Part shown: piece after piece, positions 6,254 through 31,800 of the stretch
Numbering within the stretch: position 1 is the first letter of the stretch
How the letters are laid out: every line of letters begins with the position of its first letter
Origin: Bacteroidales bacterium
GTDB lineage: Bacteria; Bacteroidota; Bacteroidia; Bacteroidales; UBA10428
Length of the DNA: 57,181 nucleotides
Assembly (NCBI GenBank): GCA_016926375.1
Contig: JAFGOR010000101.1
Coordinates: 1-57,181, forward strand
Reading direction: 5' to 3'
Translations under genes and position numbers: made by a program
Notes under the pieces: model-generated
What the model was told of the DNA's origin: nothing
Seen by the model: the letters and a program-made list of their open reading frames with translations, nothing else
The model's database searches: none

Positions 6254-6721
6254 TCATTTTTGCGATATGTATTCTTTTTTCAATTCCTCAAACTTGTTCA
6301 GAAAGAAGTTCAGCATATCAATCATGTCTCTGATGAGAACGGCATTTTCCGACTGCTTATCGGCTTTCAGTTCCAGTGTTCGCTCCAGATAATTCAGCGC
6401 ATCTGTGAGTGTAACACGGTGCTCGTCGATGAGTGCAAACTTGTCGCGCTTTTTGAGCTGAAAATACCTTTTCCGGTCGCCCGGGACAGTGATGTAATCA
6501 ATTGCCCCTGATATTTCAAGCAAGCGCAATGCGTTGCTGGCCGAGCTTTTGCTGATTTGAAGATCTTCCACAATCTCATCAAAGGTATACTGCTCTTTGT
6601 CCATTACGGTGAGCAATCCCACAATACGACCGGCAATGGGCTGCAGACCCTTTTTCTCGTAAAACCTGCCGGCCATTTCCACCATTTCTTTCTGTCGCCT
6701 GATTCGCTCTTCTGTTGTCAT
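6254..6721 (-). CDS. GbsR/MarR family transcriptional regulator
   Basis: G..P.AGRI, TFDEI...LQISKSSASNALR and PGDRKRYF winged-helix motifs; start taken at MTTEE. Confidence 0.88.
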   Translation of the reverse strand: MTTEERIRRQKEMVEMAGRFYEKKGLQPIAGRIVGLLTVMDKEQYTFDEIVEDLQISKSSASNALRLLEISGAIDYITVPGDRKRYFQLKKRDKFALIDEHRVTLTDALNYLERTLELKADKQSENAVLIRDMIDMLNFFLNKFEELKKEYISQK

Positions 6722-6739
6722 TTTATAATAATTAAGGCG

Positions 6740-6784
6740 CAAATATAGGAATTAGTTCTTTTAGTTCGGTAAATTATAAACTAA
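6740..6784 (-). promoter_or_regulatory. Bacteroidota -7 box plus candidate autoregulatory operator
   Basis: TATATTTG (minus, 6740-6747) fits TAnnTTTG; inverted repeat TTAGTT-N12-AACTAA at 6761-6784. Confidence 0.55.
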
Positions 6785-7047
6785 AAAAACTAATAAAAAA
6801 TATCCTTTTTCCGTATTCCCTGATGGTTTAACCATAAAATAAAGAACTCCGGGTTCGGCTTGTTATGAAAAGATTGACTTTACAAAACTAAATCCATCTA
6901 AGGGAATTGTAAAACAATAATCGGTAGATGGCAGGTATTTTTCGGTGAATGGCTAAAATGTGCCGAAAACCCGCTTAACAATAACTTGATCTTGTTGTAT
7001 CGTTTTTGTTACATTGCTTTAATGCCTTTAGAGAAAGTCGGATAGCA

Positions 7048-7188
7048 ATGAAAAACCGGATGAAACATATTGAGCAGCAGTTGCACCCCTATCGTGAGGA
7101 TATGGAATACCTGTTATTCGTGGGCGTACCGGCAGGGTTGCTGATGGTACTTTTTTCAGAATGCATGAATTTCCTTCAGTTGTTTTGA
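7048..7188 (+). CDS. Possible small membrane protein, 46 aa
   Basis: Basic N-terminus followed by one hydrophobic stretch (YLLFVGVPAGLLMVLF); fills an intergenic gap. Confidence 0.35.
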   Translation: MKNRMKHIEQQLHPYREDMEYLLFVGVPAGLLMVLFSECMNFLQLF

Positions 7189-7198
7189 AGAGCCAGGA

Positions 7199-7264
7199 AC
7201 CTAGCACCTAGCACCTAGCACCTAAAACCAAAAGCCTACCCGCCTTCGCTGAAGCTACGGCGGG
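7199..7264 (+). repeat. (ACCTAGC)x3 heptamer array plus REP-like hairpin CCCGCCTTCGCTGAAGCTACGGCGGG
   Basis: Read directly. The hairpin recurs inverted at 23482-23507 (21/26). Confidence 0.8.
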
Positions 7265-7272
7265 CGAAGCTC

Positions 7273-7461
7273 CTAATACTTCTGAAAATACAGCTTGAAT
7301 TCCATTAGGGAGAAGCTCCTGAAACAACTGAAATCATGATACACTCTGTATGAAGGCGGATGCTGGGCCATGGGCGGTGTGTATTCGAAATGATAAAAGC
7401 TATTCTCGCTGAACTTCACCTGAATGTCGTCAAATTTCTTGATGCACTTACACTTATACAT
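7273..7461 (-). CDS. Small hypothetical protein, 62 aa (MYKCKCIKKF...)
   Basis: ATG lies about 27 nt downstream of a full-consensus Bacteroidota promoter. Confidence 0.55.
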   Translation of the reverse strand: MYKCKCIKKFDDIQVKFSENSFYHFEYTPPMAQHPPSYRVYHDFSCFRSFSLMEFKLYFQKY

Positions 7462-7488
7462 GAGGGCAGGTTTTGGAATTGATCGATG

Positions 7489-7520
7489 CAAAAGTAACAT
7501 TTCATTTGAATGATGGCAAA
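7489..7520 (-). promoter_or_regulatory. Bacteroidota primary-sigma promoter
   Basis: TTTG-N20-TACTTTTG on the minus strand. Confidence 0.7.
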
Positions 7521-7546
7521 TAAATTTGTGAACGGGAGAAGACACA

Positions 7547-7636
7547 AGCCATTAGCTTTTGGCTTTTAGCTATTAGCCAACAACCCTGCCTGCCTGCCGG
7601 CAATAGCCAATGGCCAACAGCCAATGACTAACGACG
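7547..7636. repeat. Inverted heptamer arrays (TAGCTTT / CAATAGC type) around a partial CCTGCCTGCCGGCA core
   Basis: Read directly. Confidence 0.7.
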
Positions 7637-7694
7637 AATTAACCATCTTGTTCAAAAAAGTTTTTCTTCCATGGGGTAATATCATCTAAGTTTA

Positions 7695-7702
7695 TATATT
7701 TG
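7695..7702 (+). promoter_or_regulatory. -7 box upstream of the DHS homologue
   Basis: TATATTTG fits TAnnTTTG. Confidence 0.55.
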
Positions 7703-7755
7703 TCCGGAAGAAGCATGTATTTTATTTGAATGATAATCAACAAGTATTAAACGAG

Positions 7756-8778
7756 ATGACAGCCAAACGAGAATTATTGAAAGAGACCATCGAGCACATT
7801 GATATCAAATCATTCGATGCCACTCCAATTATTGATTCGATGAAAAAGATGTCTTTTTCATCACGTGACACCGCCAATGCTGCTGATATTCTCCTGAAGA
7901 TGGTTCGGGATAAAGAATGTACCAATATACTGACGCTTGCAGGAAGCACCAGCGCCGGTGGTTGTATGCAGGTATACGTGGATATGGTGAAGAGCCATAT
8001 GATTGATGTGATTGTAGCTACAGGTGCCAGTATCATTGACATGGACTTTTTCGAAGCCATCGGGTTCAAGCACTATATTGGCCGCACGGATGTGCCGGAC
8101 AAAAAGCTCAGGGATTACTATATCGACAGAATTTATGATACTTTCATTGATGAGGATGACCTGCAGGTTTGTGACGGAACCATCAAGCTGGTTGCCGACA
8201 CACTTCAGCACCGCCCTTATTCCTCCCGTGAATTCATCTGGGAACTGGGCAAATACCTGGTTAAAAATGCTGTGAAGAAGGACTCATTGATCCAGGCCTG
8301 CTATGAAAATGGTGTTCCCATTTTCTGTCCTGCGTTTTCCGACAGCAGTGCCGGATTCGGACTGGTCAAGCACCAGTGGGAGAATCCCGACAAACATGTA
8401 ACCATTGACTCAGTGCGTGATTTCAGGGAACTGACCATGATCAAAATGGAAGCTGAAACCTCCGGACTCTTTATGATCGGCGGAGGTGTTCCTAAAAATT
8501 TCGCACAGGATACCGTGGTTTGTGCCGAGATTTTGGGAAAATCGGTGCCCATGCACAAATATGCAGTGCAAATCACAGTTGCAGATGCGCGTGACGGAGC
8601 CTGCTCTTCATCAACACTCCAGGAGGCTTCTTCATGGGGCAAGGTAGATACCAAATATGAACAAATGGTTTATGCCGAAGCAACCACAGTACTTCCCCTG
8701 ATTGCATCTTTTGTATACCACAGCGGGGCCTGGGAAAAGAGAAAACCAAAGGAATGGAGCAAGTTGTTTCAGAAGTAA
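7756..8778 (+). CDS. Deoxyhypusine synthase family protein (possibly a homospermidine-pathway aminobutyltransferase)
   Basis: DRIYD, PIFCPAFSDS, GGGVPKNF and EASSWGK (catalytic Lys) motifs; start at ATG 7756 or TTG 7726. Confidence 0.9.
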   Translation: MTAKRELLKETIEHIDIKSFDATPIIDSMKKMSFSSRDTANAADILLKMVRDKECTNILTLAGSTSAGGCMQVYVDMVKSHMIDVIVATGASIIDMDFFEAIGFKHYIGRTDVPDKKLRDYYIDRIYDTFIDEDDLQVCDGTIKLVADTLQHRPYSSREFIWELGKYLVKNAVKKDSLIQACYENGVPIFCPAFSDSSAGFGLVKHQWENPDKHVTIDSVRDFRELTMIKMEAETSGLFMIGGGVPKNFAQDTVVCAEILGKSVPMHKYAVQITVADARDGACSSSTLQEASSWGKVDTKYEQMVYAEATTVLPLIASFVYHSGAWEKRKPKEWSKLFQK

Positions 8779-8789
8779 CGGTTTGAAGA

Positions 8790-8860
8790 AAGATACAAGA
8801 GCCAAGACCTGCCTGCCGGAGCGGCAGCGCAGGCAGGTCCAAGATCTGGGATTCAAGATT
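8790..8860 (+). repeat. CAAGA(T/G) heptamer array with inserted 30-bp CCTGCCTGCCGGAGCGGCAGCGCAGGCAGG hairpin
   Basis: 8807-8841 is identical over 35 bp to 21120-21154. Confidence 0.85.
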
Positions 8861-8873
8861 CTATTGAGTAGTT

Positions 8874-8908
8874 CGGCTCAGGCATTGCCTGGGCCGTTTT
8901 TGTTTTTT
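8874..8908 (+). terminator. Intrinsic terminator after the DHS homologue
   Basis: CGGCTCAGGC...GCCTGGGCCG stem followed by TTTTTGTTTTTT. Confidence 0.7.
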
Positions 8909-9245
8909 CAGGCTGCGCCTGATAATGAACTGGCACGTAAACCTGCCCGATTTGCTTCTCCTGCATTTTCACGCAGAAAAGTTGCCTTTTTCTGTTTTCC
9001 GCAATGAAATATGCTGTTGATCCGGTTGTGGCATGGAATGCTGACAACCTTTACCGGAGCGGCTTTCAGGAGGAGACTTGCCGGTTGAAATGGTTAATAA
9101 AACGTTGGCAACTTTTTTTTTCTGCTGCGTATAACGTTCAAAAATGAATTAACATTAGCAAAGATTTTTAAGACAATTGTTGGTCTTAACATAATAATAG
9201 GTATATAAGTTAAACTTTTAACACTACAGTCACTTTAACAAAAAA

Positions 9246-10511
9246 ATGAACGAAAAACTTATCGAGGAATGCATCTCTGCAGAAGGTGATGTCCCGCTTG
9301 TGGTCCCGGACAACCTTGTAATGTCCGGTTATCTGAAAAACAGTCTTCCCAAAAACAAGCATCCCGAATTCTCAACAATCAGCCCGAACACGAGAAAGTT
9401 TATCAACAGACATTTCCCCGGTGTCAGCGATGAGCAATGGAATTCATGGAGATGGCAGATAAAAAACAGTTATATATCTTTCAGCCAGTTAAACAAGATT
9501 ATTGATTTCCGCAGGGTTATCGATGATCAGTCGATTCTTGATAACGACAAGCTCCCTTTACGAATTACACCCTATTATGCCAGCCTGATTGAAGGCGCAG
9601 GTGCCAACCATCCGATTGTCAAAGGAGTTGTTCCCAGCATCAAAGAGTTGTACCAAACTCCTGGTGAAGCTTCAGATCCCCTTCATGAGGAAAATTGTTC
9701 GCCTGTTCCGAACATTGTACACCGCTACCCCGACAGGGTGCTGTTCCTGGCCACCGGTTTTTGTTCAACTTATTGCAGGTACTGCACCCGTTCACACATG
9801 GTTGCAAAGGACAAAATGCATTATGGGAAGGCTGCATGGCAACCCGGCCTTGAGTATATCAGAAACAACAAAGCTGTCAGGGATGTGTTGATATCCGGAG
9901 GAGACCCGCTTACCATGCCTGAAGCACACCTGGAATACCTGCTGGAAAGCTTGCGTGCAATCCCTCATGTTGAAATCATCCGGATTGGCACCAAGGTGCC
10001 TGTGGTATTACCGCAACGAATAACCAGCAGTTTTGTCAACATGTTACGCAGATATCATCCTTTGTTCATGAGCATTCATTTCATGCATCCATTGGAACTT
10101 ACTCCCGAGGTTCATGAAGCCTGCACCAGGCTGGCCAATGCCGGAATACCTCTGGGAAGCCAGACGGTGTTGCTCAAAGGTATCAATGATTCTGTTCCGG
10201 TTATGACCAAACTGATGCAGGGTTTACTGCGCAACCGCGTGCGGCCGTATTATATTTACCAGTGCGATCCCATTCTTGGATCGGGACATTTTCGAACCAC
10301 TGTTAAGGCCGGTTTGGACATAATTCGCGGTATGCGCGGATATACCAGTGGTTATGCCATACCTCATTTTGTAATTGATGCCCCCGGTGGAGGAGGCAAG
10401 ATTCCGCTTCTACCCGAATATGCCCTGGGGCATGAAGGAGATAATCTGGTTCTTCAGAATTATGAAGGGAAGCGCTTTTACTATCCCGATGTGGTTGATA
10501 CTGCGGACTGA
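9246..10511 (+). CDS. kamA: KamA family radical-SAM/PLP aminomutase (lysine 2,3-aminomutase-like)
   Basis: HRYPDRVL, CSTYCRYC, SGGDPL, YYIYQCD and VIDAPGGGGK (PLP Lys) motifs. Confidence 0.92.
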   Translation: MNEKLIEECISAEGDVPLVVPDNLVMSGYLKNSLPKNKHPEFSTISPNTRKFINRHFPGVSDEQWNSWRWQIKNSYISFSQLNKIIDFRRVIDDQSILDNDKLPLRITPYYASLIEGAGANHPIVKGVVPSIKELYQTPGEASDPLHEENCSPVPNIVHRYPDRVLFLATGFCSTYCRYCTRSHMVAKDKMHYGKAAWQPGLEYIRNNKAVRDVLISGGDPLTMPEAHLEYLLESLRAIPHVEIIRIGTKVPVVLPQRITSSFVNMLRRYHPLFMSIHFMHPLELTPEVHEACTRLANAGIPLGSQTVLLKGINDSVPVMTKLMQGLLRNRVRPYYIYQCDPILGSGHFRTTVKAGLDIIRGMRGYTSGYAIPHFVIDAPGGGGKIPLLPEYALGHEGDNLVLQNYEGKRFYYPDVVDTAD

Positions 10512-10532
10512 AGAAGCTTTCAAATAATAAGC

Positions 10533-10563
10533 AGCGATCCCCCAGGGGATCGCTTTTAATTTA
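10533..10563 (+). terminator. Intrinsic terminator after kamA
   Basis: AGCGATCCC..GGGATCGCT stem followed by TTTAATTT. Confidence 0.65.
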
Positions 10564-10618
10564 TGTTTCCTTCACATTTGCTTTCAACGTGAATCAGAAT
10601 TTTAATTAGTGATTAATA

Positions 10619-11605
10619 ATGGAAATAGGACTGACCTACGACCTGCGGACCGATTACCTGAATGAAGGCTTTACACCCGAAGAAACAGCAGAGTTTGATA
10701 AGGAAGAAACCATTGAAGGAATTGAAAATGCCTTGCAGAGCCTGGGATATCAAACAGCACGCATTGGTCATGCCCGTAAACTGATGAGCGAATTGCTGAC
10801 CGGAAAACGCTGGGATATGGTTTTCAACATATGTGAAGGAATGTACGGAGACAGCCGTGAGTCTCTCATTCCTGCCCTGCTTGACGCCTACCGCATACCT
10901 TATGTTTTTTCGGGTGCGGTAACCCTGGGTATTTCACTGAACAAAGCTTTTGCTAAAAGAATTGTCAGGGACGCGGGTATCAATACGCCCCCTTTCATGG
11001 TGGTTAACCATACTGATGATGTAAAACATTGTCAGCTTGCTTTTCCTTTGTTTGCCAAGCCTGTTTCGGAAGGAACCGGAAAAGGAGTTGAAGATCGCTC
11101 TGTGATTCACGATGCCCGACAACTGGCCGATATGTGCGATTGTCTTCTGGAAAAATTCAACCAGCCTGTGCTGGTTGAGGAATACCTGCCGGGACGTGAG
11201 TTTACTGCAGGAATTGTGGGAAACGGGACGGATGCCCGTGTTATCGGAGCTATGGAAGTTATTTATGGCAAGGGCGTCAGTGACATTTATTCGTATTTCA
11301 ACAAGGAAAATTACGAAGGGCGTATTCATTACACACCTGTAACCGGTGAATGGCTCAGACATTGCGAGGATATTGCACTTAAGTCGTGGAATGCCCTGAA
11401 TGCAAACGATGGCGGAAGGGTGGATCTCCGGGTTGACAAATTTGGTGAAATAAGCTTTATTGAAATCAACCCGCTGGCCGGATTGAACCCGGTTCATTCC
11501 GATTTGCCCATACTTTGCCGGATGAATGGTATTGAATATGTTCAGTTAATAGGCATGATCATGGATGCAGCTCTTAAAAGAATCAACATGCCGAATGGAA
11601 AATAA
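10619..11605 (+). CDS. D-Ala-D-Ala ligase-like ATP-grasp peptide ligase 1 (non-canonical)
   Basis: FPLFAKP..EGTGKG, VLVEEYLPGREF, RVD and FIEINPLAG motifs; lacks the Ddl GGxSxE motif. Confidence 0.88.
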   Translation: MEIGLTYDLRTDYLNEGFTPEETAEFDKEETIEGIENALQSLGYQTARIGHARKLMSELLTGKRWDMVFNICEGMYGDSRESLIPALLDAYRIPYVFSGAVTLGISLNKAFAKRIVRDAGINTPPFMVVNHTDDVKHCQLAFPLFAKPVSEGTGKGVEDRSVIHDARQLADMCDCLLEKFNQPVLVEEYLPGREFTAGIVGNGTDARVIGAMEVIYGKGVSDIYSYFNKENYEGRIHYTPVTGEWLRHCEDIALKSWNALNANDGGRVDLRVDKFGEISFIEINPLAGLNPVHSDLPILCRMNGIEYVQLIGMIMDAALKRINMPNGK

Positions 11606-12566
11606 AAAGGTCATTATTCTTCATAATGCTGTTGCCGGGAACAGCAACCCCGATGAGGCTGATGTGCTGCATCAGGTGGAGCTGGTTTCAAAAGCACTGA
11701 CCGTTTTAGGATATCACCCCATTGCATTCCCGTTACAGGATGACCTTATTCAGGATATGAAGTCCATTGAGAAAAGTGAGCCCCTGTTTGTATTCAACCT
11801 GGTAGAAGCTGTATTCAATAAAGGAGAATTGCTGTATATGGGTCCGGCTTTGCTGAATGCCCTGAAAATTCCCTATACCGGAGTTCCGGTTGAAGGTTTG
11901 TTTTTGACCACCAATAAGGTGCTTACCAAAAAAATCCTGGAGTACAACCACATTCCCACCCCAGGTTATTTCACCACCAATGAAGTTCACAGGTTGAAGT
12001 CAGGCACCCGGTACCTGCTCAAACCGGTAAGCGAAGACGGTTCAGTGGGTCTGGATGAAGATGCGGTTTTTACAGTTGAACAAACAGCCATTACCTGCAA
12101 CATCAGCCGGCAACCAGCTTCTCATTATTTTATTGAAGAGTACATCGAAGGACGTGAGTTTAATATCAGCATTCTGGGAGGAAAGGGCAAGAGAGACGCA
12201 CTGCCTGCTGCCGAAATGATTTTTAATGATTACCCGGCAGGTAAGCCACGCATACTGGGCTATAAAGCCAAATGGGATGAATCGTCGGCAGAGTTTAAAA
12301 ACACCACCCGCGCATTCAATACGCTATCGCAGGAATCGCCTTTATACCGTGAACTTGTGCAATTAACAGAGGCATGCTGGGATTGTTTTAACCTGAAAGG
12401 TTTTGCACGGGTTGATTTCCGGATTGACCAAAATGAGCAGCCATATGTTATTGAAATCAACGGAAATCCATGTATTTCACCCGACAGTGGTTTTATAGCG
12501 GCAGCTAACCAGGCGGGACTTTCCAGTGCTGATGTAATTGCAAGAATAATTGAAGAATTGACATAA
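11595..12566 (+). CDS. D-Ala-D-Ala ligase-like ATP-grasp peptide ligase 2 (non-canonical)
   Basis: IPYTG, LKPVSEDGS.G, IEEYIEGREF, ARVDFR and IEINGNP motifs; start MENKK overlaps the upstream stop. Confidence 0.88.
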   Translation: MENKKVIILHNAVAGNSNPDEADVLHQVELVSKALTVLGYHPIAFPLQDDLIQDMKSIEKSEPLFVFNLVEAVFNKGELLYMGPALLNALKIPYTGVPVEGLFLTTNKVLTKKILEYNHIPTPGYFTTNEVHRLKSGTRYLLKPVSEDGSVGLDEDAVFTVEQTAITCNISRQPASHYFIEEYIEGREFNISILGGKGKRDALPAAEMIFNDYPAGKPRILGYKAKWDESSAEFKNTTRAFNTLSQESPLYRELVQLTEACWDCFNLKGFARVDFRIDQNEQPYVIEINGNPCISPDSGFIAAANQAGLSSADVIARIIEELT

Positions 12567-12593
12567 CGCCATATTGATAAATAGTTGAACAGT

Positions 12594-13076
12594 ATGATAA
12601 CATTTCGGGAGCAACTGGTACCTGAAGACATCCGGAAAATAGGCGAGGTGTTGGAATCAAGCGGCTTCTTTCATTCCTATGAGGTTGATGTGGCCAGTGA
12701 ACTGGCTTCTATAAACCTCGAAAAGGGAGCAGCAACTTCCGGATACCATTTTATAATTGCCCACGAAGCGGATACCCTGCTGGGCTATTGCTGTTATGGC
12801 CCCAATCCGTGTACCGAATCAAGTTACGACCTTTACTGGATTGCGGTTCACAAAAGTCATATGAAAAAGGGCCTGGGCCGGAAACTGATGTACCTTGCCG
12901 AACAGGGTGTTCTGAAATTGGGCGGAACCATAGTCTGGGTAGAAACTTCAGGACGCGCTATATATGAATCAACCCGGAAGTTCTATCTTACGCTGAATTA
13001 TGAAAGGGTAGCCACACTCCCCGATTTTTATGCCCCGGGAGACGACAAGATTGTGTTTATGAAAAGAGTAGGGTGA
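12594..13076 (+). CDS. GNAT N-acetyltransferase
   Basis: LYWIAV...KKGLGRKL acetyl-CoA motif; FY; DFYAPGDD. Confidence 0.88.
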   Translation: MITFREQLVPEDIRKIGEVLESSGFFHSYEVDVASELASINLEKGAATSGYHFIIAHEADTLLGYCCYGPNPCTESSYDLYWIAVHKSHMKKGLGRKLMYLAEQGVLKLGGTIVWVETSGRAIYESTRKFYLTLNYERVATLPDFYAPGDDKIVFMKRVG

Positions 13077-13097
13077 ACGGGTTGATGCTTTTGTGTA

Positions 13098-13598
13098 TCA
13101 AAGTTGTTTCTCGTAGCAAACAAACGGAATTTTCTGGTAGGCGGCCTGAAACGAGGCAACTTCTTTAAACGATTGTTTTTCGTATAACTGCCGGGCATGA
13201 TCGCTGGGTTTGAACACATCCAGCCGGATACAATCGAATCCCTTTTCTTTTGCCAGTTTTTGGGAAAATTCAATCATCAGTTTGGCAATCCCCATACCCT
13301 GCCACCTGGGATGCACAGCCATGTGCTGAAGATAAAGCGGCTTGCGGTTTTCGGATGGAAGATTCAACTGCTTATAATCTTCAGGCTCATTTGTATTTAG
13401 CGTAACCATTCCCTTGCATACGCCCTTTTCTTTAACCAGGAAAATGGAGCCGGAATCAAGATCCTTTTGTATGGTGTCGGCCCCGGGATAAGCACTGTTC
13501 CAGTGTTTCATCCCTTTTGCATTCATGTCGAATATACAAATCCTTAACAGGTATAAAATTTCAATAAGATCAGTCGGCCTGGCCTGAATAATTTCCAT
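13098..13598 (-). CDS. GNAT N-acetyltransferase
   Basis: MAVHPRWQGMGIAK, RLD and A..LYEK motifs; own -7 box TATATTTG at 13639-13646 (minus). Confidence 0.88.
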   Translation of the reverse strand: MEIIQARPTDLIEILYLLRICIFDMNAKGMKHWNSAYPGADTIQKDLDSGSIFLVKEKGVCKGMVTLNTNEPEDYKQLNLPSENRKPLYLQHMAVHPRWQGMGIAKLMIEFSQKLAKEKGFDCIRLDVFKPSDHARQLYEKQSFKEVASFQAAYQKIPFVCYEKQL

Positions 13599-13796
13599 CT
13601 GGATCTAATTTCTCATTTCTGTAAATAAACCGTGAGGACAAATATAAATAATAATAAAAGACGATCATTACTGTTATAATGATGCTTTTGAATAAACTAC
13701 TATTTTTACATAAAAATAATCAGTTTTTTTAAATTTAGAATATCTTTTCATATTCATTTGTTGTTCCAGTAACAGGCATTTATACCAGTTTTCATC

Positions 13797-15257
13797 ATGT
13801 CATGCATCCGCTTTTTGTTGTTCAGATCTGTTTTCGCCATATGCTGTATTCCTTTACTGGTAATACTTGCGTTGTCATGCAATCACGATTTGCTCAACCC
13901 CGATCCGGATGCGCTTCCTGGTTTTTCTACTGACACTGTTTCTTTCGATACGGTTTTCACTACAATAGGTTCCGCTACCCTGTATTTTAAAGTTTACAAC
14001 AAAGACAACAGGCCCTTGCTGATCCGGTCGATTGAATTGGGTGGCGGGAACAGTTCTTTTTTCCGATTGAACATTGATGGTGAACCGGCATTAAGGGTTA
14101 CCGATGTAGAGATAGCGCCCAAAGACAGTATGTTCATTTTTGTTGCAATTACCATTGATCCGCTGAATTCCAACAATCCCGTAATCATCAGCGATTCGGT
14201 AGTTTTCAATACCAATGGCACCTTGCAGCATGTGAAGCTGCTGGCATATGGCCAGGACGTTCATCTGTACAAGAATACATTTATTGGAACAGAAACCTGG
14301 ATCAACGACAAGCCTTACCTGGTTTACGGTAACCTTGAAGTGGATTCGGGCCATGTGCTTACCATTGAACCGGGAGCGCAAATTTACTTTCACCGCAATT
14401 CAAGCATGGTGGTATGGGGAACTCTGGTTGTAAACGGTACCAGTGAAAACTGCGTTGTTTTTCAGAACGACCGTCTTGAAGCGTTTTACGACATCATCCC
14501 GGGTCAGTGGGGCACCATTTTCTTCGCTCCCTATAGCCGGGGTAACAGAATCAACCACGCCATCATCAGAAATTCAATAGCCGGGTTGCAACTTGGATTC
14601 CCCGCAGATCCACGGATTCCTGAATTGGAAATTTCCAACAGCATCATACAGAACATGTCCTTTGCCGGTATTTATGCCTTTGGAGCAGAACTTCTTTGCT
14701 ACAACACCGTTATTGCAAACTGCGCCGGCCCTGCTGCTGCATTGCTGCAAGGAGGGAACTATGAATTCTACCATTGTACCATTTCCAATAACGGTGTGCT
14801 GGGAACATCGCGTTCCAGCCCTTCCCTGGTGATGACAAATTACTTCGACAATATTGAGGAGGGCGCTTATGTAAGATATACCCGCGATTTGACAGCCGGA
14901 TTTGTGAACAGCATTATTTACGGAAGTAATTTGCATGAACTTCAACTGCTGAACTCCCAGGCAAGCCAGTTCATTTACCGTTTTGATCATTGCCTTTTGA
15001 AGGCTTCGGCAGATTCAATTGATTTAACCAATACTGCCGTTTTCAGTGAAATTATACTCAACAGGGACCCAAACTTTGCCAACGATTCCGACAGGTACCA
15101 TCTCAATTACAGCCTTGATACGCTCTCACCGGCTAAAGACTCAGGTGACGCACAATTAATAGAAATTTTCCCGTATCTCGAATACGATATTATGGAGCAA
15201 TCCCGCAAATACGATGGTAAACCTGACCTGGGCGCATTTGAAAGAAAGGAAGACTGA
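13797..15257 (+). CDS. Lipoprotein with Ig-like and right-handed beta-helix regions
   Basis: Lipobox ALSC; FSTDTVSFDTVFT; LTIEPG..I.F; C-terminal SPAKDSG...PDLGAFE. Confidence 0.7.
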   Translation: MSCIRFLLFRSVFAICCIPLLVILALSCNHDLLNPDPDALPGFSTDTVSFDTVFTTIGSATLYFKVYNKDNRPLLIRSIELGGGNSSFFRLNIDGEPALRVTDVEIAPKDSMFIFVAITIDPLNSNNPVIISDSVVFNTNGTLQHVKLLAYGQDVHLYKNTFIGTETWINDKPYLVYGNLEVDSGHVLTIEPGAQIYFHRNSSMVVWGTLVVNGTSENCVVFQNDRLEAFYDIIPGQWGTIFFAPYSRGNRINHAIIRNSIAGLQLGFPADPRIPELEISNSIIQNMSFAGIYAFGAELLCYNTVIANCAGPAAALLQGGNYEFYHCTISNNGVLGTSRSSPSLVMTNYFDNIEEGAYVRYTRDLTAGFVNSIIYGSNLHELQLLNSQASQFIYRFDHCLLKASADSIDLTNTAVFSEIILNRDPNFANDSDRYHLNYSLDTLSPAKDSGDAQLIEIFPYLEYDIMEQSRKYDGKPDLGAFERKED

Positions 15258-23745: not shown

Positions 23746-26700
23746 TCAGGGATTGACTTCCAGCAGCTTCAGGTAGCCGTTGTTAATGGCAAACAGCAAC
23801 CCTTCTTTTCCGGAGGCCAGCTTGATTTTTCCTATAGCCTTTACCTCTCCCCGCACACACAAGCCGCTTTCAGCCGGTGGAATGGCTCTGATGTTCCCTT
23901 TGGAATCTGCCTTCAAAACAAGCCCTATACTGGCATCATTCCGGGGTGTTGCGCTTTCCGATGCATAAAAATTGCCGGCAATAACAAATGCAGTTTCATT
24001 ACCGTCATAATTAATTGCTGCCGTTGCATTCACCGAAGAAATTTGAGCCCAGTTGGGCAATGGATGCATTGAGAAGTTGCCATTTCCCTGATTCTCAATC
24101 CAATAATGCGCAAATGTATTGGTTGTGTAGTGCAATGAGGCATTCAGCATGACTTCACCATAAATATCCTCAAGCGTAGCACTGGCAAAATCCTTATAAG
24201 TGGCAAACCTGAGTTTGACTACAGGTATCTGTTTGGATGTGGCATCAAAATCATGCGCGGGGTAACGTGTTCCGTTCTCCCCGTAAGCCATAACGATATC
24301 ATTTCTTCCATCCACGTCAAAATCATTGATAAAGACTTCAAAAGGCTCTTCTTTACTTGTTTTATATTTATAATTCAAACCCAGGTTACCGGCTACAAAA
24401 TCTGTGTCGCCATCCTTGTCCATATCGATGGATTGAATGCTGTACCACCAGCCAACGGTTTCACCAAAGCCTTTTTTTATGGTTACATCTGTAAATCCGG
24501 CATCAGTATTCTCAAAAAAGCAGATTTTCATCCATTCACCCACCACAATCAGGTCCATATCCTGATCGCCATCGAAGTCGTTCCATAAGGCATCGGTCAC
24601 CAGCCCGATCTGACTTAATGCCGGTGCCACCTGACTGGTCACGTTATCAAACCTCAGTTCCGATCCTTTTTTGCCATTATTTCTCAAAACATAACTGTTG
24701 GCGGGGTAAGGGTAATTTCCGGGCACTATGCGGCCGCCCACAAACAGATCCAGATCACCGTCGCGATCATAATCAGCAGCTTTTACGCATTTTCCGCTTA
24801 TATTCAAATCTGCAGGAAGGGCATTTGAGCTCTTTTCAAACCCTTTTCCTGTGTTCAGGTACAATCTGTCCTGATAGAATTCCGTAGGCTTTCTGATATC
24901 GTTTCCTCCGCTTACCACATATAAGTCTGTTTTGCCGTCACCATCTGCATCAAACAGCAATGCTCCCGTATCTTCAAAGTTTTTATCGTTGTTCCATGGT
25001 CCGGACATTTCCTTAAAGGCACCTGTTTCTGTTTGCAGATACATGGCTGCTTTTGACCCCTGGGCATTGCCGATAAAGAAGTCGTCAAGGCCGTCACCGT
25101 TGACATCACCGGTAGCCAGTCCGGGACCCATTTGCGAGTTTTTATGGGGTAGGAGTTCTTCAGTCAGAAAATCATCAAAGTCATCCTCCGTGTGCCTGAA
25201 GTTGATCCCGGATGCAATGGTAATGTCTCTGAAGTGTTGTTTCTTTTCAGGAGCAGCCGGCTTAACCTTATCGGCATTTTTATAGGATAATTTCAGGGTT
25301 TGGTTTGCCTGTATATTTTTAAGAATCTGCATTTTGTTGTCGGGCCAAACTATGGTTAACTCATCAATGGTGTCGTGCTGAGCCAGGCCAAAATGCAGGG
25401 TTGCAGGCACACTCGACTGGTATCCGCGGGTCAGGGTCAGTTCCTGGTATTGCGTTATATCTTTGGTTTTCACCGTGATGATGCTTCCCAGGCCAAATAA
25501 ATTGTGATCGGGACCAGCCAGGTTGATTTTGATAAAATGGTTATTGGTACTGTTTGCAGCCCTGTTTTCATAAATGGCTGAAACTTCATTCACATTGCAG
25601 ACCACAACATCCAGGTCTCCGTCGTTGTCGAAGTCGGAATACGACATGCCGTTGGCAAGTGTTGGCTCCTCAAAACCCCATGCTACTGAAACATCAGTAA
25701 ATGTAAGATCACCATTGTTTTTGTAAACATAGTTTCTCACGGGCGTACTGGGAAAGAGTTCGGGCCGGTATTCTTTAACCTGCCTGAAGTATTCATTTTC
25801 CATAGGATCGCGAAGTATGTCGCGATCATTGATGTCTTTCAGCACGCCATTAGCAACAAAGAGATCCTTATAGCCGTCGTTATCCAAATCCAGAAAAGTT
25901 CCGCCCCAGCTCCAGTCGGTATAAGCCGTACCGGCAAACAGGGTGATGTTGCTGTAAACCGGGATGCTGTCGAAAATGCCGTTGTTGATCTGCAGTGAGT
26001 TCTGCATATACTGGTAATGAAAGCCGAATCCAATACTTTTATTGAATGTTTCACGTCGCATGGGCATCACATTCACAACCCTGCGGAAATGATCCTCCGG
26101 GGTCATGTCTATCTGGAACATGTCAACCAGTCCGTCGTTATTGACGTCGGCTGCATCGAAACCCATCCCGAAAATAGATGTTTGAAAGGTAGCCTCTTTC
26201 ACCACTTCCCTGAATGTGCCGTTGCCATTGTTCAGGTAAAAGCGATCGGGCGGATTGAAGTCATTGGAAATATAAAGATCCTTCCATCCGTCGTTGTTAT
26301 AATCCATAGCCACAACACCAATCGACATACCGAAATTTCTCACGCCGGCTTCATCAGTGACATCAGTGAAGGTCCCGTTCCCGTTGTTTCTAAATAAGTG
26401 GCCTGATTCTTCCAAATTATTCTCAGTGACTTTATTATAATAGAAATCAGCACCTTGGCTCACCAGAACAATGGGGTAATTGGCCACAAAAAGATCAAGA
26501 AAACCATCGTTGTTATAGTCAAAGAAGGTTGCCTGAACTGAAGAGCTATTGTCGTTGATGCCGTATGTTTTGCCACTTTCCGTGAAGGTGTTGTTTTTGT
26601 TGTTGATAAACAATAAATTATCCGAAGGCGGGTATTTTCCTGAAACGCAAACGTATATGTCGAGCCAGCCGTCGTTATTTACATCGGCCATGGTTGATCC

Positions 26701-27033
26701 GGTAAACCACTGGTGATTACCCATAATTCCCGCTTGCTCGGAAATATCTTCAAACTTCATATTTCCCTTATTCAAATAGAGCCTGCTGGGAACAAGGTTG
26801 CCTGTGAAGAAGATATCATCGAGTCCGTCGTTGTTGATATCGCCCACCGAAACGCCGCATCCCATATACATGTATGGAAAAATGGTGTAGTTCAGGGTGT
26901 CATTTTCAATCAACTCATTCAGAAAGTCAATACCTGTTTTGGATGGGGAAAGTTTTTTGAATGGTTCTTTGGAAAACTTATCACACGACAACAGCAAAAG
27001 ACAAGTAAGGAGTATGATGAAAGAGGACTTCAT
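23746..27033 (-). CDS. FG-GAP/VCBS-repeat lipoprotein with central ASPIC/UnbV domain (CRTAC1-like), copy B
   Basis: Lipobox LLSC; many DxNxDGxxD repeats; RGYQSS...LHFGL...IVWPD ASPIC motif. Confidence 0.88.
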   Translation of the reverse strand: MKSSFIILLTCLLLLSCDKFSKEPFKKLSPSKTGIDFLNELIENDTLNYTIFPYMYMGCGVSVGDINNDGLDDIFFTGNLVPSRLYLNKGNMKFEDISEQAGIMGNHQWFTGSTMADVNNDGWLDIYVCVSGKYPPSDNLLFINNKNNTFTESGKTYGINDNSSSVQATFFDYNNDGFLDLFVANYPIVLVSQGADFYYNKVTENNLEESGHLFRNNGNGTFTDVTDEAGVRNFGMSIGVVAMDYNNDGWKDLYISNDFNPPDRFYLNNGNGTFREVVKEATFQTSIFGMGFDAADVNNDGLVDMFQIDMTPEDHFRRVVNVMPMRRETFNKSIGFGFHYQYMQNSLQINNGIFDSIPVYSNITLFAGTAYTDWSWGGTFLDLDNDGYKDLFVANGVLKDINDRDILRDPMENEYFRQVKEYRPELFPSTPVRNYVYKNNGDLTFTDVSVAWGFEEPTLANGMSYSDFDNDGDLDVVVCNVNEVSAIYENRAANSTNNHFIKINLAGPDHNLFGLGSIITVKTKDITQYQELTLTRGYQSSVPATLHFGLAQHDTIDELTIVWPDNKMQILKNIQANQTLKLSYKNADKVKPAAPEKKQHFRDITIASGINFRHTEDDFDDFLTEELLPHKNSQMGPGLATGDVNGDGLDDFFIGNAQGSKAAMYLQTETGAFKEMSGPWNNDKNFEDTGALLFDADGDGKTDLYVVSGGNDIRKPTEFYQDRLYLNTGKGFEKSSNALPADLNISGKCVKAADYDRDGDLDLFVGGRIVPGNYPYPANSYVLRNNGKKGSELRFDNVTSQVAPALSQIGLVTDALWNDFDGDQDMDLIVVGEWMKICFFENTDAGFTDVTIKKGFGETVGWWYSIQSIDMDKDGDTDFVAGNLGLNYKYKTSKEEPFEVFINDFDVDGRNDIVMAYGENGTRYPAHDFDATSKQIPVVKLRFATYKDFASATLEDIYGEVMLNASLHYTTNTFAHYWIENQGNGNFSMHPLPNWAQISSVNATAAINYDGNETAFVIAGNFYASESATPRNDASIGLVLKADSKGNIRAIPPAESGLCVRGEVKAIGKIKLASGKEGLLFAINNGYLKLLEVNP

Positions 27034-27089
27034 GTTTATTGTATATATTGGGTTGCGAGGGCCGAATATATTACAATTATTTTGAAAAA

Positions 27090-28727
27090 TCAGTATCCCG
27101 GATTCTGATCCTCCTTGTTTATGTTAGGATTCAAATCAATTTCAGATTGTGGAATGGGCCAGAGCTCATGTATGGCCGGATCAAAGTCTATGGCATCCTT
27201 ATGATATCCTGGTAAAAAAGGCTTTATTTCGTTGTTGATGAATGCTTCAAGCCTGCGCCATCTTACCAGGTCATCGAACCGGACTTGTTCACTGCAAAGT
27301 TCCACTTTACGTTCATGTTCAATGGCTATTCTGATCTGTTCTTTGGTGGAAACAGGATAAATGTTATCCATTGCCGGGGTTCCGTAATTGGGCATCATGA
27401 CATCTGCTCTGTTTCTAACCTGATTTATATAATCCACCGCTGCATCAAGATTACCCAATTCGTTTTCTGCCTCAGCCATCATCAGGCATACATCGGATAA
27501 CCGGATTACCTTAGTATTAATTCCTGATGTATTATTTTCATACGGTCTTTTATAGTAATTCTGGTATTTCCGCCAAGCATATCTCGTATAGTGATCAACC
27601 CGCATCGTATCGGCCTCCCAATAATAAAAATCAAGAACAGGTATGTCCAAGGTTCGGGTGTTATTATCATACAAGTCACCTGTTGAATAAATGGAGTAAC
27701 CTCTTCGCGGATCAGTTTTAATTCCGTTATCGGCATCTGTTTCAAATTCATCGAAGGTGTTATGGGTGACAAAAACATTGAACCAGTTATTTACACCATA
27801 TTCCATTCCCCTGAATGTACCTTCGTTATATCCCGAACCGTCATCGGCTGCCCATATATCAGCAGTACCCAGTTCCGGTTGGAATTCAACTTCGAAAATT
27901 GATTCAATTCCATGTTCGGTTTCTTCTTCGAAATTATTCAGATAACGGTCTTCCAACCGGTAATTCACATTGTCGCTCAATACCTGAATAAAGGCATTCC
28001 TGGCAGCAGCATAATCCGCCTCACTGTTCGACTCGTTGGCCTGAAACAAATGGACTTTCCCCAAAAGAGCCCATGCTGCACCGGATGTTGCCCGTCCCTT
28101 TTCTTCAATACTCTTGGCCAGGCAATGGTTTGCTGCAATTTCCAGATCTTCTTCAATCTGGCTCCAGACTTCGGCTATTGGAGATCTTGGGAAACCTTTT
28201 TCATTTGCATTGGGGTTGACCGTAAGTAACGGAACATCACCAAACCTTGTTACCAGCAGGAAATAGTAAAGTGCCCTTAAAAAGTGTGCTTCGCCAATGT
28301 ATTTATCTTTCAATGTCTGTGACAGCTCATTTTTTGGAATCTGTTGGATGAGGCCTTCGTTATGAATAACAAAGTTGGCCCGGTTAATACCTCTGTAACA
28401 GTTTTTCCAATATTCCCCGATGGCGACGTGAGTTGCATCGAATGAAAATCGGCTATATTGCAATTTATCAGCTTCAGCCGAGGGATTCATCAACTGTTCC
28501 TGGGCCATATTATCCAGTGCAAAAAAAAGATTGCGCTGATACAATCCCCTGGTTTGCAAATTGGCATAAATAGCATTTACTGCCTGTTGAACCTGCAATT
28601 CAGTTTTAAAATATATCTCCGGGGTTAACTGGTTTGGGTTTGTTAATTCCAGTTTATCTAAATTGCACCCAAACAAAGAGAAAAGCATTAAAGCAGCAGT
28701 TGCAATAAACAAATGCTTTTTTTTCAT
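27090..28727 (-). CDS. RagB/SusD family lipoprotein, copy B (no adjacent SusC)
   Basis: Lipobox LFGC; GEAHFLRA.YYF.LV..FGDVPL, GRAT, HERKVEL and QNPGY motifs. Confidence 0.92.
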   Translation of the reverse strand: MKKKHLFIATAALMLFSLFGCNLDKLELTNPNQLTPEIYFKTELQVQQAVNAIYANLQTRGLYQRNLFFALDNMAQEQLMNPSAEADKLQYSRFSFDATHVAIGEYWKNCYRGINRANFVIHNEGLIQQIPKNELSQTLKDKYIGEAHFLRALYYFLLVTRFGDVPLLTVNPNANEKGFPRSPIAEVWSQIEEDLEIAANHCLAKSIEEKGRATSGAAWALLGKVHLFQANESNSEADYAAARNAFIQVLSDNVNYRLEDRYLNNFEEETEHGIESIFEVEFQPELGTADIWAADDGSGYNEGTFRGMEYGVNNWFNVFVTHNTFDEFETDADNGIKTDPRRGYSIYSTGDLYDNNTRTLDIPVLDFYYWEADTMRVDHYTRYAWRKYQNYYKRPYENNTSGINTKVIRLSDVCLMMAEAENELGNLDAAVDYINQVRNRADVMMPNYGTPAMDNIYPVSTKEQIRIAIEHERKVELCSEQVRFDDLVRWRRLEAFINNEIKPFLPGYHKDAIDFDPAIHELWPIPQSEIDLNPNINKEDQNPGY

Positions 28728-28826
28728 CTTCAATATTTCAATTAATATTACCCTAAAGTTATAAATATTATTCTGATATCTAATACTGTATGTGCTTAAT
28801 GAATATTGGGGGCCCTTATAGATCTG

Positions 28827-31800
28827 TTATTTAATTTGGAATATCTGTATTTCACTGTTGTTATTTCCTACCAAAACAGCAGATTTGCTTTCATTGTCAT
28901 TAAGGCGGATCAGTGAAAGTGCCTTGACATCTCCCGGAACAAAAAATCCGGAAAGGGCAGGGGCAACTGTTGAGAAATTGCCCTTGCCATCACCTTTTAA
29001 AAATGTACCCACTCCGGCATCGTTTCTGGGTGTCGCCACTTCCACGTTGAAAAGATTACCTGCAGCAAGGATATCCTGTTTTCCATCCCTGTCAAAATCT
29101 TCAAGAATAATTCCGTTTGTGGATGACAACTGTGCTTCATTGGGCAAAGGATGCGGTATAAATTTACCATCACCGGTGTTTTCGAAGTAGTAACTGGCAA
29201 AGGTTTCAGCCTGAAGGTGCAAAGACTTCTCAAGCAAATCATTGGTGAATATATCTGAAACTGTGGCGGCACCAAATTCCGCGTATGTAGGAAATTTAAT
29301 GGCAATCCAGGGATTCTGGCTGACGAAACAGGATCTTCCCCTAAGCGGATATTGCTTTTCTTTCTGATAATAGCTGAGGACAATATCAGATCCTCCGTTA
29401 TTATTAAAATCTCCTGCATAAACGTCAAAAGTGTTGCCGGGTTTTGCCTGGTATCTGAAATTCAGGCCCAAATTTCCTGCCACAAAATCGATGTCCCCAT
29501 CCCCATCCATGTCGGCGCCTTCCACGCTGAACCACAAGCCACGGGTTCCTTCCAGAATATTCTTTTTAAATTTCCCGTTATGGTTTATAAAATAGCAAAT
29601 GGGCATCCATTCTCCTGCAACAACCAGGTCGGGCCATTCATCCCGGTTAATATCCATACAAACTGCCGAGGTTACCATGCCGATTTCCTTGAGATCCGGA
29701 GCCACTTTGGATGTAATATCTTCAAACCTTACCTGGCCATCGGCTGACTTATTTTCAAGGATATAGCTATCGGCAGGATAAGGATATTTCCAGGGGATTT
29801 GCCGTCCGCCGACAAACAAATCCAGGTCTCCGTCTTTATCAAAGTCAATTGGCTTCACACAGGAACCGCTTGAATAAATCCGGGGCAATCCATTTTCATC
29901 CTTGTGAAAATTGCCTTTTCCGTCATTGATGTATAACCGGTCGGCATATTCTGTTGACCCTGCCGGGAATTCGTAACCACCGCTCACCACATACAGGTCA
30001 AGGTCTTCATCTCCGTCTGCGTCAAAAAATAAAGCACCGGTAACATCCGTTTCAATATCTTTTTCCCAGGGTCCTGAATGATTTACAAAAGTTCCATTTT
30101 TCTGTTGCGTAAACAAAGCCGCCGGACTTTTCGCAGCATTGCCGATAAAGAAGTCTTCAAAGCTGTCGTTGTTGATGTCACCAACGGCAATGGCCGGACC
30201 CAACATCGACATTTTGTGAGGCAACAGCACCTGCTTCTGGTAATCATTAAAAGCATTTTCCCTATGAACAAAAACAGGATGACCCTGATTGGTTACTTCA
30301 TCAAATAGGGGCATCTGTTTTACTGACCGGGGAACAGCAGGTAATGCATCCGTGTGTTTTACAACAAGTTTCTGGTTGACACTGACATTCAGGAGCAACT
30401 GGTTTTTTCCGTCGGGCCATTTAATCAAAAGGGAATCAATCTCTTCATTTTGGGCGAGTCCGAAATAAAGTATAGGTTCCACTGAAGATTGATAACCCCT
30501 TGACAACGTAAGCTCGGCACATTGCATTTTCCCTTCGGTCCATAGAGTTACTTCCGATCCTATGCCCATTTTGTTTTTATTGGTTCCTTCAAAAGAAATT
30601 TTCAAATAGTTTCCGAGTGATTGTTCAAGAGCATTATTATTATATATAAATGCTTCTGCATCAATATTATTTACGATTAATTCGAGATCACCGTCATTAT
30701 CCAGGTCGGCATAAGCCATACCATTTGAATAACTCGTTTCAGTAATGTTCCATTCCTGGTTCACCTGCGAAAAGGTAAGATCGTGGTTATTCCGGTACAA
30801 ATAATTCGTCAGTGGCTTATAGGGCATTTTTTTGAGGAAGTACAGGTTTCTATCCTTTCCTTTAATGGTTTTCTGATCCGCAGTTTCTTCTATTTCGTTA
30901 AAAAAATCAATATTATTGATATCCCTGCGAGAGCCATTGGTAATGTATAAATCCTTCCACCCATCCAGATCAAAATCTGCAAACAGTGCTCCCCAGCTCC
31001 AATCGGTGGATGTTACACCTGCAATCCAGGCTGTATTGGAGAAGTGTGGCAGTCCGTTTTTATGAATACCTCTGTTCAATTGCAGCGTGCTGTAACGATA
31101 TTGAAAATTGAGACCTTGCTGGATCATCTCCTCAAAATCAGCCAGGGGCATACTGGTCATATTTTCTTTGGCCCGTTGATTATCTTCCGGAGCCATATCG
31201 ATTTGGAGGATGTCCTGCAAACCGTCATTATTAATATCAGCAATGTCAGCTCCCATTCCATAAAAAGAAGTCTGTGAGGCCATTTCCAGGCACCGGTCGG
31301 TGAAAGTGCCATTACCATTGTTCATATAAAAAAAATCGGGACTTGTAAAATCATTGGAAACATAAAGGTCCTTATATCCGTCCTGATTCAGGTCGCTGAC
31401 CGTGGCACTTAAAGTAAGGCCAAAATTTAACAGGCCAGCCTGTTCCGTAACGTCCGTAAATTTGCCATTACCTTCATTACGGTATAAATGGCTCGACTTA
31501 CTGTGTTGTGCATTACGCATCATCTGGCGGTAAAAATAGGGAGTCATTTGAAAATGGGTGATGGGGTAATTGGCCACGTATAAATCAAGATCACCATCGT
31601 TATCAAAATCAAAAAAAGTGCTGTGGGTGCTTTTGCCGTTATCGTCAATGCCATATTTTGCAGCTTCCTCGATAAAAACAGGGATGCCCACATGATTGTT
31701 ACCCTGGTTGACAAACAACATGTTCCTGCACATATCGGTAACGCCTGACACACTGATATAAATATCCGGCAGTCCGTCATCATTGATGTCGCAAACAGTT

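Follow-up and report, generated by a model that had tools for sequence, protein, structure and literature searches.

A Four-Gene Cassette with a Lysine Aminomutase, Two Ddl-Derived Ligases and an Acetyltransferase: A Candidate Operon for a β-Lysine-Derived Metabolite

The Locus

The window, i.e., the whole stretch of 57,181 nucleotides (nt) of DNA that was analyzed, is one contig (C136) of a genome assembly that comprises 3.43 Mb in 294 contigs and is 86% complete; Bacteroidales is the label of its closest relatives. Positions 9246–13076 of the window (3.8 kb) contain four open reading frames (ORFs) on the + strand, which together are referred to here as the cassette. The first, KamA (9246–10511; 421 amino acids, aa), is a lysine 2,3-aminomutase of the type that uses a radical S-adenosylmethionine (SAM) cluster and pyridoxal phosphate (PLP). 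The second and third, Lig1 (10619–11605; 328 aa) and Lig2 (11565–12566; 333 aa), are amide ligases of the ATP-grasp type, apparently derived from D-alanine–D-alanine ligase (Ddl), and Lig1 has a predicted acidic substrate pocket. The fourth, GNAT1 (12585–13076; 163 aa, with a TTG start), is a small N-acetyltransferase of the acetyl-CoA type. All four ORFs were found where a first-pass annotation of the window had placed four co-oriented genes with overlapping ligases. The overlap of Lig1 and Lig2 is 41 nt as the frames stand; with Met11 (nt 11595) as the first residue of Lig2 it would be 11 nt, and this later start is probably the true one, because residues 1–10 of the Lig2 model have a predicted local distance difference test score (pLDDT) below 50. 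The view favored here, with a confidence that only just outweighs doubt, is that the cassette is an operon, self-contained and horizontally mobile, that makes a small metabolite derived from β-lysine.

The Aminomutase

KamA matches the Pfam families LAM_C and Radical_SAM, and aligns without gaps to the lysine 2,3-aminomutase of Clostridium (PDB 2a5h; residues 56–415 on 8–367, 405 bits). Two motifs are present and aligned to 2a5h: the radical SAM cluster motif CxxxCxxC (CSTYCRYC in KamA), and GGGGK, the lysine of which binds PLP. Counted along this alignment, the aspartates of YQCD and VIDAPGG, which the first-pass annotation had singled out as kept, fall on Asp293 and Asp330 of 2a5h. These two residues are presumed to hold the ε-ammonium group of lysine and to be replaced in glutamate 2,3-aminomutase.

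KamA was scored against five family models and passed only that of the KamA subfamily (TIGR00238; 333 bits, cut-off 199). Its scores on the other four were 448 bits for the AblA-type lysine aminomutase equivalog (cut-off 525), 408 for glutamate aminomutase (cut-off 650), 348 for arginine aminomutase (cut-off 600), and 240 for EpmB (cut-off 369). Because the lysine-type residues are present and the AblA model scores higher than the arginine model, β-lysine is the likely product; β-arginine, which the first-pass annotation had offered beside it, is less likely.

A second, more divergent KamA-family gene is present in the same genome (G000:C155:19871–20698; L086:1438–2334), where it is cut by a contig end; it scores 189 bits over 245 positions on the AblA model. 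In the genome as assembled (86% complete), nothing exceeded the EpmA cut-off: the best match (247 bits, cut-off 287) sits in a 588-aa frame, which is probably lysyl-tRNA synthetase. A scan of the window’s 38 larger ORFs gave no efp, epmA or kamDE-like gene, as had been reported earlier.

The Two Ligases

Both ligases are labeled as Ddl in databases, and they descend from that family. The Pfam family Dala_Dala_lig_C is matched by Lig1 with 93.5 bits and by Lig2 with 71 bits; the AlphaFold (AF2) models have pLDDT values of 89 (Lig1) and 88.5 (Lig2); the matches listed by Foldseek for Lig1 are all Ddl-family ligases (one of them a D-Ala:D-lactate ligase), at 17–23% identity; and a look-up of Lig1 in the ESM Atlas returned only clusters named “D-alanine--D-alanine ligase family”. 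However, the best NCBIfam Ddl model gives 144 bits for Lig1 and 112 bits for Lig2 against a cut-off of 243, and both ligases lie far below the cut-offs of all Ddl and Van models.

To compare residues, 64 members of the Lig1 family and 64 members of the Lig2 family were aligned with DdlB of E. coli K-12 and with the canonical Ddl of the window’s own genome, and 21 positions of DdlB were mapped, with the roles that the DdlB literature gives for the residues. The residues that we take to bind ATP and Mg and to stabilize the acyl-phosphate are Lys97, Lys144, Glu180, Glu187, Lys215, Arg255, Asp257, Glu270 and Asn272. All of these except Glu270 are kept in 64/64 sequences of either family; Glu270 is Glu in 64/64 Lig1 sequences, and in Lig2 it is Glu in 50 and Asp in 14. 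The ATP-grasp motifs noted in the first-pass annotation are, with this one reservation, real.

The situation is different for the positions that presumably bind D-Ala in DdlB, namely the GGxSxE motif with Glu15, Ser150, Tyr216, and Ser281-Leu282. Ser150 is Thr in Lig1, and Gly or Ala in Lig2; at Tyr216, Lig1 has a deletion and all 64 Lig2 sequences have Trp; Leu282 is Asp throughout Lig1 (64/64) and Gly throughout Lig2 (64/64). Elsewhere in the map, His63 has become Glu in every sequence of both families (64/64 each), and Gly276 is kept as Gly in Lig1 and is Cys in Lig2 (64/64). Judged by these residues, Lig1 and Lig2 are catalytically intact, with substrate pockets that have changed from that of DdlB.

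The GGxSxE motif is found in neither ligase; it is present in the canonical Ddl of the same genome (“GGRSAEHEVS”, contig C118). Profile–profile alignment (probability >99.9% for both ligases) places the invariant Glu21 of Lig1 on Glu15 of DdlB, and Asp30/Glu31 of Lig2 beside Glu15. The first-pass annotation had stated that the ligases lack the motif: this is correct for Gly-Gly-x-Ser, but the acid that binds the amino group has probably been kept, in a remodeled and more acidic loop. The acidic N-terminal stretch of Lig1 to which it had drawn attention (EETAEFDKEET) is a genuine feature, as 27 orthologues show no variation at E21, A24, E25, D27 and T31.

Three separate groups are seen in a maximum-likelihood tree of 44 rows, two of which were wrong frames and were disregarded: Lig1 (19 rows; 98/100), Lig2 (16 rows; 88/89), and canonical Ddl (7 rows; 100/99). 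Both ligases, which had been called non-canonical, therefore lie outside the canonical Ddl clade in this sample. The Lig1 and Lig2 trees have matching groupings of loci, which fits co-inheritance and transfer of the cassette as a block. Furthermore, a canonical Ddl is present in 5/5 other carrier genomes tested (by label, a Proteobacteria metagenome-assembled genome, Syntrophomonadales, Ilyobacter, Acidobacteria and Aminicenantes), with Pfam scores of 154–231 bits, vs ~100 for Lig1 and ~75 for Lig2. By these comparisons, Lig1 and Lig2 descend from Ddl but are no longer Ddl.

The first-pass annotation had suggested that the two ligases act sequentially or as a heterodimer. A model of the Lig1–Lig2 heterodimer scored 0.46 (runs of 0.34, 0.46 and 0.54), the best control scored 0.00, at least 69% of contacts agreed between runs, and the pLDDT of the partner was at least 80. 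In the calibration, the mark was reached by 116/157 solved complexes and by 2/215 mismatched pairs; scores of ≤0.60 were given by only 18/157 solved complexes, but by both of the mismatches that passed. Because Ddl homodimers are solved, the pass may come from the predictor’s memory of them. The modeling gives the heterodimer weak support.

The Acetyltransferase

GNAT1 matches Pfam Acetyltransf_7 and Acetyltransf_1 over their cut-offs and contains the stretch “KKGLGRKL”; the loop of GNATs that binds the pyrophosphate of acetyl-CoA is presumably R/Q-x-x-G-x-G/A. It is an orthologue of a GNAT of solved structure (PDB 2r7h; E 4.9e-40 over 156 residues), which is named “Putative D-alanine N-acetyltransferase of GNAT family”, a name that the depositors themselves marked as putative. 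The sole citing paper that a search of open-access texts returned for 2R7H is on another subject. NCBIfam gives weak matches only, the best to RimI and one to a generic GNAT model, and the AblB model does not match GNAT1 at E ≤ 0.001.

An exhaustive search gave 118 GNAT1 representatives at E ≤ 1e-30. Among the best 150 representatives, 92 are stand-alone proteins and 51 are fused to Lig2 (Lig2–GNAT1). Two fusions of a deacetylase with GNAT1 were also found.

Conservation, Fusions and Variants

Relatives of Lig1 were collected in a scan of one genome per species, and the best 80 of 186 stretches (51–92% identity) were used as loci, with each synteny count including only those loci that have enough flanking DNA. 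KamA lies 5′ of Lig1 on the same strand in 62/63 loci, Lig2 lies directly 3′ of Lig1 in 71/74, and the complete set of four, with order and strand unchanged, is found in 49/53, the exceptions being L026, L068, L073, and the variant locus L037. A neighborhood survey had been suggested with the first-pass annotation, and the four genes do co-occur elsewhere; the counts support the view that KamA, Lig1, Lig2 and GNAT1 are one conserved functional unit.

Further evidence comes from gene fusions. The relatives of Lig2 that are longer than Lig2 itself (n = 81) include 71 Lig1–Lig2 fusions, always in that order, as well as four Lig2–GNAT1 fusions, one Lig1–Lig2–GNAT1 fusion and one Lig2–KamA fusion. 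The frequency of Lig1–Lig2 fusions backs the earlier suggestion that the two ligases act together. Three other proteins among the 81 (P0201–P0203; ~715–726 aa) combine a more distant Lig1-like domain (31–33% identity) with a peptidase M20 domain (PF01546); these are another combination of a ligase with a deacylase, and belong to a different family.

In 11/80 loci there is an extra gene of ~580 aa, mostly between KamA and Lig1. Its product combines an N-terminal part that weakly resembles GNATs with a domain of the histone-deacetylase fold; the closest solved relatives of this domain are acetylpolyamine amidohydrolases (9gkz, 240 bits; also 6phr and 3q9b). No such gene was seen in the window’s genome (86% complete).

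Two Syntrophomonadales loci (L037:5454–9915 and L024:4640–8152) have a different arrangement, in which an ATP-grasp protein of the YheC/D type (470 aa) is followed by KamA and then by Lig1. In L037, Lig1 is followed by a different GNAT (249 aa), and a class-V aminotransferase gene lies upstream; in L024 there is no GNAT, and the two small ORFs after Lig1 have no Pfam match. Thus, in L037 unrelated enzymes of the same two classes have taken the place of the second ligase and the acetyltransferase, which speaks for a pathway in which two amide bonds and one acetylation are required.

A search in and beside the cassette for a conserved small ORF, as a possible precursor or carrier, gave only shadow ORFs confined to single lineages: the most widespread family of small ORFs occurs in 11/~80 loci, and lies inside a flanking gene. 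Apart from the ~580-aa gene, the recurrent neighbors are lineage-specific; among them are an alpha/beta hydrolase, TatC, CorA, PspC/LiaF-like proteins, an ABC ATPase, and a radical SAM protein. At one locus labeled Desulfonatronovibrio, the gene directly 5′ of KamA encodes a sigma-54 activator (L057:5402–6376). A genome labeled Ilyobacter (G303, locus L052) has two Lig1–Lig2 pairs (C3:32555–34094 and C2:425697–427236), which lie on different contigs and fall together in the tree.

Distribution

The carriers are labeled Bacteroidota, Pseudomonadota, Clostridia/Syntrophomonadales, Thermodesulfobacteriota (Syntrophaceae, Desulfonatronovibrio and Desulfovibrionaceae), Fusobacteria (Ilyobacter), Acidobacteriota/Aminicenantes and Chrysiogenetes, i.e., about seven phyla, and the identity of Lig1 across phylum labels is 51–63%. 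Within the order to which the window belongs, a Lig1 orthologue (E ≤ 1e-60) occurs in 47/301 sampled genomes, or in 41/260 if only high-quality genomes are considered; there is none in two genomes of the same genus (99% and 97% complete), nor in one genome of the same family. The cassette is accessory and patchy.

Sequences Flanking the Cassette

The gene directly 5′ of the cassette (7726–8778, + strand) is deoxyhypusine-synthase-like, and passes the NCBIfam equivalog for 1,9-bis(guanidino)-5-aza-nonane synthase (581 bits, cut-off 500), an enzyme of an agmatine-based polyamine pathway. A polyamine link to the β-lysine product is possible. This gene was considered as a member of the operon and rejected, as only three relatives, the closest ones (L004, L006 and L008), also have it next to the cassette. 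It is, rather, a separate unit, because it is followed by a strong terminator-like hairpin (8874–8896, + strand) with a 10-bp stem that includes 8 GC pairs, and then TTTTTGTTTT. This hairpin is predicted to mark the 5′ limit of the transcription unit of the cassette.

Between the deoxyhypusine-synthase-like gene and the cassette there is also an intergenic, perfect palindrome with an 11-bp stem (8806–8841; GACCTGCCTGC...GCAGGCAGGTC). In the probable source metagenome, the summed contig depth at the palindrome is ~3134, vs ~20 on either side, and the ends of many contigs fall within it; in appearance it is a palindromic repeat element of high copy number. On the other side of the cassette, a second small GNAT gene (13098–13598, − strand) is convergent to GNAT1 and 21 nt away from it; of the relatives, only the four closest (L004, L005, L006 and L008) have kept it beside the cassette.

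Inside the cassette, the gap between KamA and Lig1 is 107 nt in the window, whereas it is a few bases in most other phyla. The gap contains a second terminator-like hairpin (10533–10554, + strand; 9-bp stem, 6 GC pairs, then the T-rich tail TTTAATTTAT), a possible attenuator, which might uncouple the expression of KamA from that of the ligases; however, a scan of the region gave 8 terminator-like sites where 5.8 are expected, so this site could be due to chance. No riboswitch or leader 5′ of KamA came near its gathering score within 6500–14000, the best being L20_leader with 24 bits vs 58.7.

RNA contigs from two metatranscriptome libraries, which belong to the same study as the probable source sample, are identical to parts of KamA (10017–10213) and Lig2 (11907–12108 and 12095–12335). 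With libraries of low depth and possible DNA carry-over, this is a weak hint that the cassette is transcribed, and the parts of the cassette that no RNA contig covers are uninformative.

The rest of the window contains SusC/SusD pairs, an extracytoplasmic function (ECF) sigma/anti-sigma pair, a 2-oxoacid:ferredoxin oxidoreductase, and NiFe-hydrogenase-related genes, a gene content that fits an anaerobic member of the Bacteroidota. Positions 23746–39387 (− strand) contain two tandem units, each of which comprises an FG-GAP/ASPIC-repeat protein (~1100 aa) and a SusD-like protein, followed by a SusC-like TonB receptor with an STN domain, a FecR-type anti-sigma factor and an ECF sigma factor. This is a trans-envelope-signaling polysaccharide-utilization-like locus.

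Proposed Pathway

β-Lysine has one carboxyl group and two amino groups. In the pathway proposed here, KamA converts L-lysine to β-lysine (3,6-diaminohexanoate), and this first step is well supported. Lig1 and Lig2 would then each make one amide bond through an acyl-phosphate, probably as a side-by-side hetero-pair. Finally, GNAT1 would acetylate the amine left free, in a step that is probably coupled to Lig2, because GNAT1 is so often fused to it. As there are one carboxyl and two amines, and three enzymes that modify such groups, the most economical product is a fully derivatized β-lysine: its carboxyl would be joined to an amine or amino acid, and its two amines would bear an acyl or aminoacyl group and an acetyl group, respectively or in the reverse arrangement.

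The pockets of the ligases permit tentative readings of their substrates. The invariant acids of Lig1 (E21, E25, D27, E73 and D295) would suit a cationic donor and a cationic acceptor, e.g., β-lysine, a basic amino acid or a diamine. In Lig2, Trp237, Cys303 and Gly309 suggest a roomier and less charged site, perhaps for a larger or acetylated intermediate. Where the accessory amidohydrolase is present, its substrate would, by analogy with its solved relatives, be an acetylated primary amine carried by an alkyl chain, e.g., the Nε of β-lysine, and its function would be turnover of the acetyl group or deprotection. With regard to the role of the product, for which the first-pass annotation had listed an osmolyte, a nitrogen store or an envelope modification, our preference is for a soluble compound that is stress-protective or rich in nitrogen; the gene context lends no support to an envelope role.

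A more specific version of this pathway can be put forward as a tentative proposal, which is more likely to be wrong than right. According to this proposal, an obligate Lig1/Lig2 hetero-pair (a pseudo-dimer when fused) would form, with KamA and a GNAT, a minimal assembly line that is independent of the ribosome and of non-ribosomal peptide synthetases (NRPSs). It would cap β-lysine at all three of its groups, with two amides and one acetyl, to give a new family of metabolites, widespread and accessory among anaerobes, which an optional deacetylase of the acetylpolyamine amidohydrolase type would recycle or activate.

Several observations weigh against the proposed pathway. The readings of the pockets depend on the alignment with DdlB and on the roles given for its residues, rather than on a ligand-bound structure. 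The four-step scheme is not universal, as L026 and L068 are without the GNAT and L073 is without an adjacent KamA. Pfam scans of the neighboring genes revealed no transporter or regulator common to the range of the cassette. Finally, many carriers are labeled as coming from lakes or groundwater, which argues against a purely salt-related solute.

Comparison with Known Systems

The cassette can be seen as analogous to the AblA/AblB route, combined with the routes in which a GNAT and ATP-grasp enzymes produce small capped peptides. AblA and AblB make Nε-acetyl-β-lysine in methanogens and some bacteria, and B. subtilis has the pair yodP-kamA. In both cases an aminomutase of the AblA/KamA type adjoins a GNAT, and β-lysine is, or would be, the committed intermediate; the cassette differs in having two ATP-grasp ligases between those genes, often fused to the GNAT, and in that GNAT1 is not of the AblB family and KamA is under the cut-off of the AblA equivalog (448 vs 525). 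Text on a Pelobacter genome mentions a predicted ablA-ablB pair (PMC3543383).

Lig1 and Lig2 share with ligases of the Ddl/VanA type the fold, the use of ATP and Mg, and the catalytic residues, which suggests the same acyl-phosphate chemistry. They differ in the loss of GGxSxE and in the changes at His63, Tyr216 and Leu282, and the genomes that carry them keep a real Ddl.

The biosynthesis of pyrrolysine, in which the radical SAM enzyme PylB rearranges lysine and the Ddl-like ATP-grasp ligase PylC then makes an amide with another amine, would offer a precedent for such an order of events. PylB, however, is a methylornithine synthase and not of the KamA type, there is a single ligase, and a dehydrogenase stands in place of the GNAT. 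PylC is absent among the PDB sequence matches of Lig1 and Lig2.

N-acetylated dipeptides are made by a GNAT and ATP-grasp enzymes in two other systems, those of NAGGN (Ngg/AsnO) and NAAG (NAT8L with RIMKLA/B). These share with the cassette an acetyltransferase and one or more ATP-grasp ligases, which are sometimes fused, and a small capped peptide made without ribosome or NRPS; in contrast, their ligases are of the RimK/cyanophycin-synthetase type, their substrates are α-amino acids (Gln, Asp, Glu), and there is no aminomutase. From the EpmA/EpmB system, which acts on elongation factor P (EF-P), the cassette differs in the low EpmB score of its KamA, and in that its 86%-complete genome gave no EpmA over the cut-off. 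Taken together, the family scores and residues indicate that the cassette is neither AblA/AblB nor EpmA/EpmB, and that its ligases are not members of the functional Ddl family.

The first-pass annotation knew of no characterized product for this gene set. In agreement with this, no description of the cassette was found in the open-access papers and preprints that could be searched in full text, and the open-access papers in which both “beta-lysine” and “ATP-grasp” occur are, by title and abstract, reviews or natural-product papers.

Alternative Explanations

The ligases could, instead of capping a single β-lysine, build an oligomer or polymer of β-lysine, or a polymer with β-lysine branches, which the GNAT would cap or regulate and which would serve as a nitrogen store or polycation. 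There would be two different ligase activities, as in cyanophycin synthetase; the very acidic pocket of Lig1 would suit a polycationic chain; and the optional deacetylase could mobilize a capped store. Cyanophycin synthetase is indeed a match of Lig1, although a marginal one (E about 0.003). However, both ligases are of the size of Ddl (~330 aa), without the extra primer-binding domain of cyanophycin synthetase, and no dedicated hydrolase or peptidase recurs in the neighborhoods. This explanation is unlikely.

β-Lysine modifies EF-P in E. coli, and ATP-grasp enzymes of the RimK/LysX type modify proteins. The ligases could attach β-lysine to a protein or carrier, either in the manner of RimK/LysX or, with EF-P as the target, as ATP-grasp counterparts of EpmA, and the GNAT would acetylate the adduct. 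The lack of an EpmA over the cut-off in the 86%-complete genome and the (weak) best match of GNAT1 to RimI would be in keeping with this. Nevertheless, such an explanation is improbable: the patchiness of the cassette within its own order, including its absence from both genomes of the same genus and from the one of the same family, is unlike what is seen for the modification of a translation factor; there is no conserved small gene for a carrier or target in or beside the cassette; the ligases are of the Ddl type rather than the RimK/LysX type; and KamA scores far better on the AblA model than on the EpmB model.

Least probable, by a long way short of even, is that KamA and the GNAT make only Nε-acetyl-β-lysine, following the logic of AblA/AblB and yodP-kamA, with the ligases being unrelated or, as their database labels would have it, ordinary cell-wall Ddl, since GNAT1 has no match to AblB, the ligases lie between KamA and the GNAT in nearly all loci, fusions join them to the GNAT and in one case to KamA, both ligases fall far below every Ddl cut-off, have changed Ddl substrate residues and form clades of their own, and a canonical Ddl lies elsewhere in the window’s genome and in the five other carriers tested.

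Significance

If the pathway of capped β-lysine proposed here is correct, the consequences are of several kinds. Because the cassette is small (3.8 kb, four genes), expressing it and applying mass spectrometry could reveal its product directly, and the ligases would add β-amino-acid amide ligases to the toolbox of biocatalysis. Two large families that are routinely annotated as the cell-wall D-Ala–D-Ala ligase would prove to be mislabeled, which would affect the annotation of cell-wall functions and of vancomycin-type resistance in metagenomes. Several hundred species from many phyla, mostly uncultured anaerobes, would make a β-lysine compound that is missing from metabolic maps.

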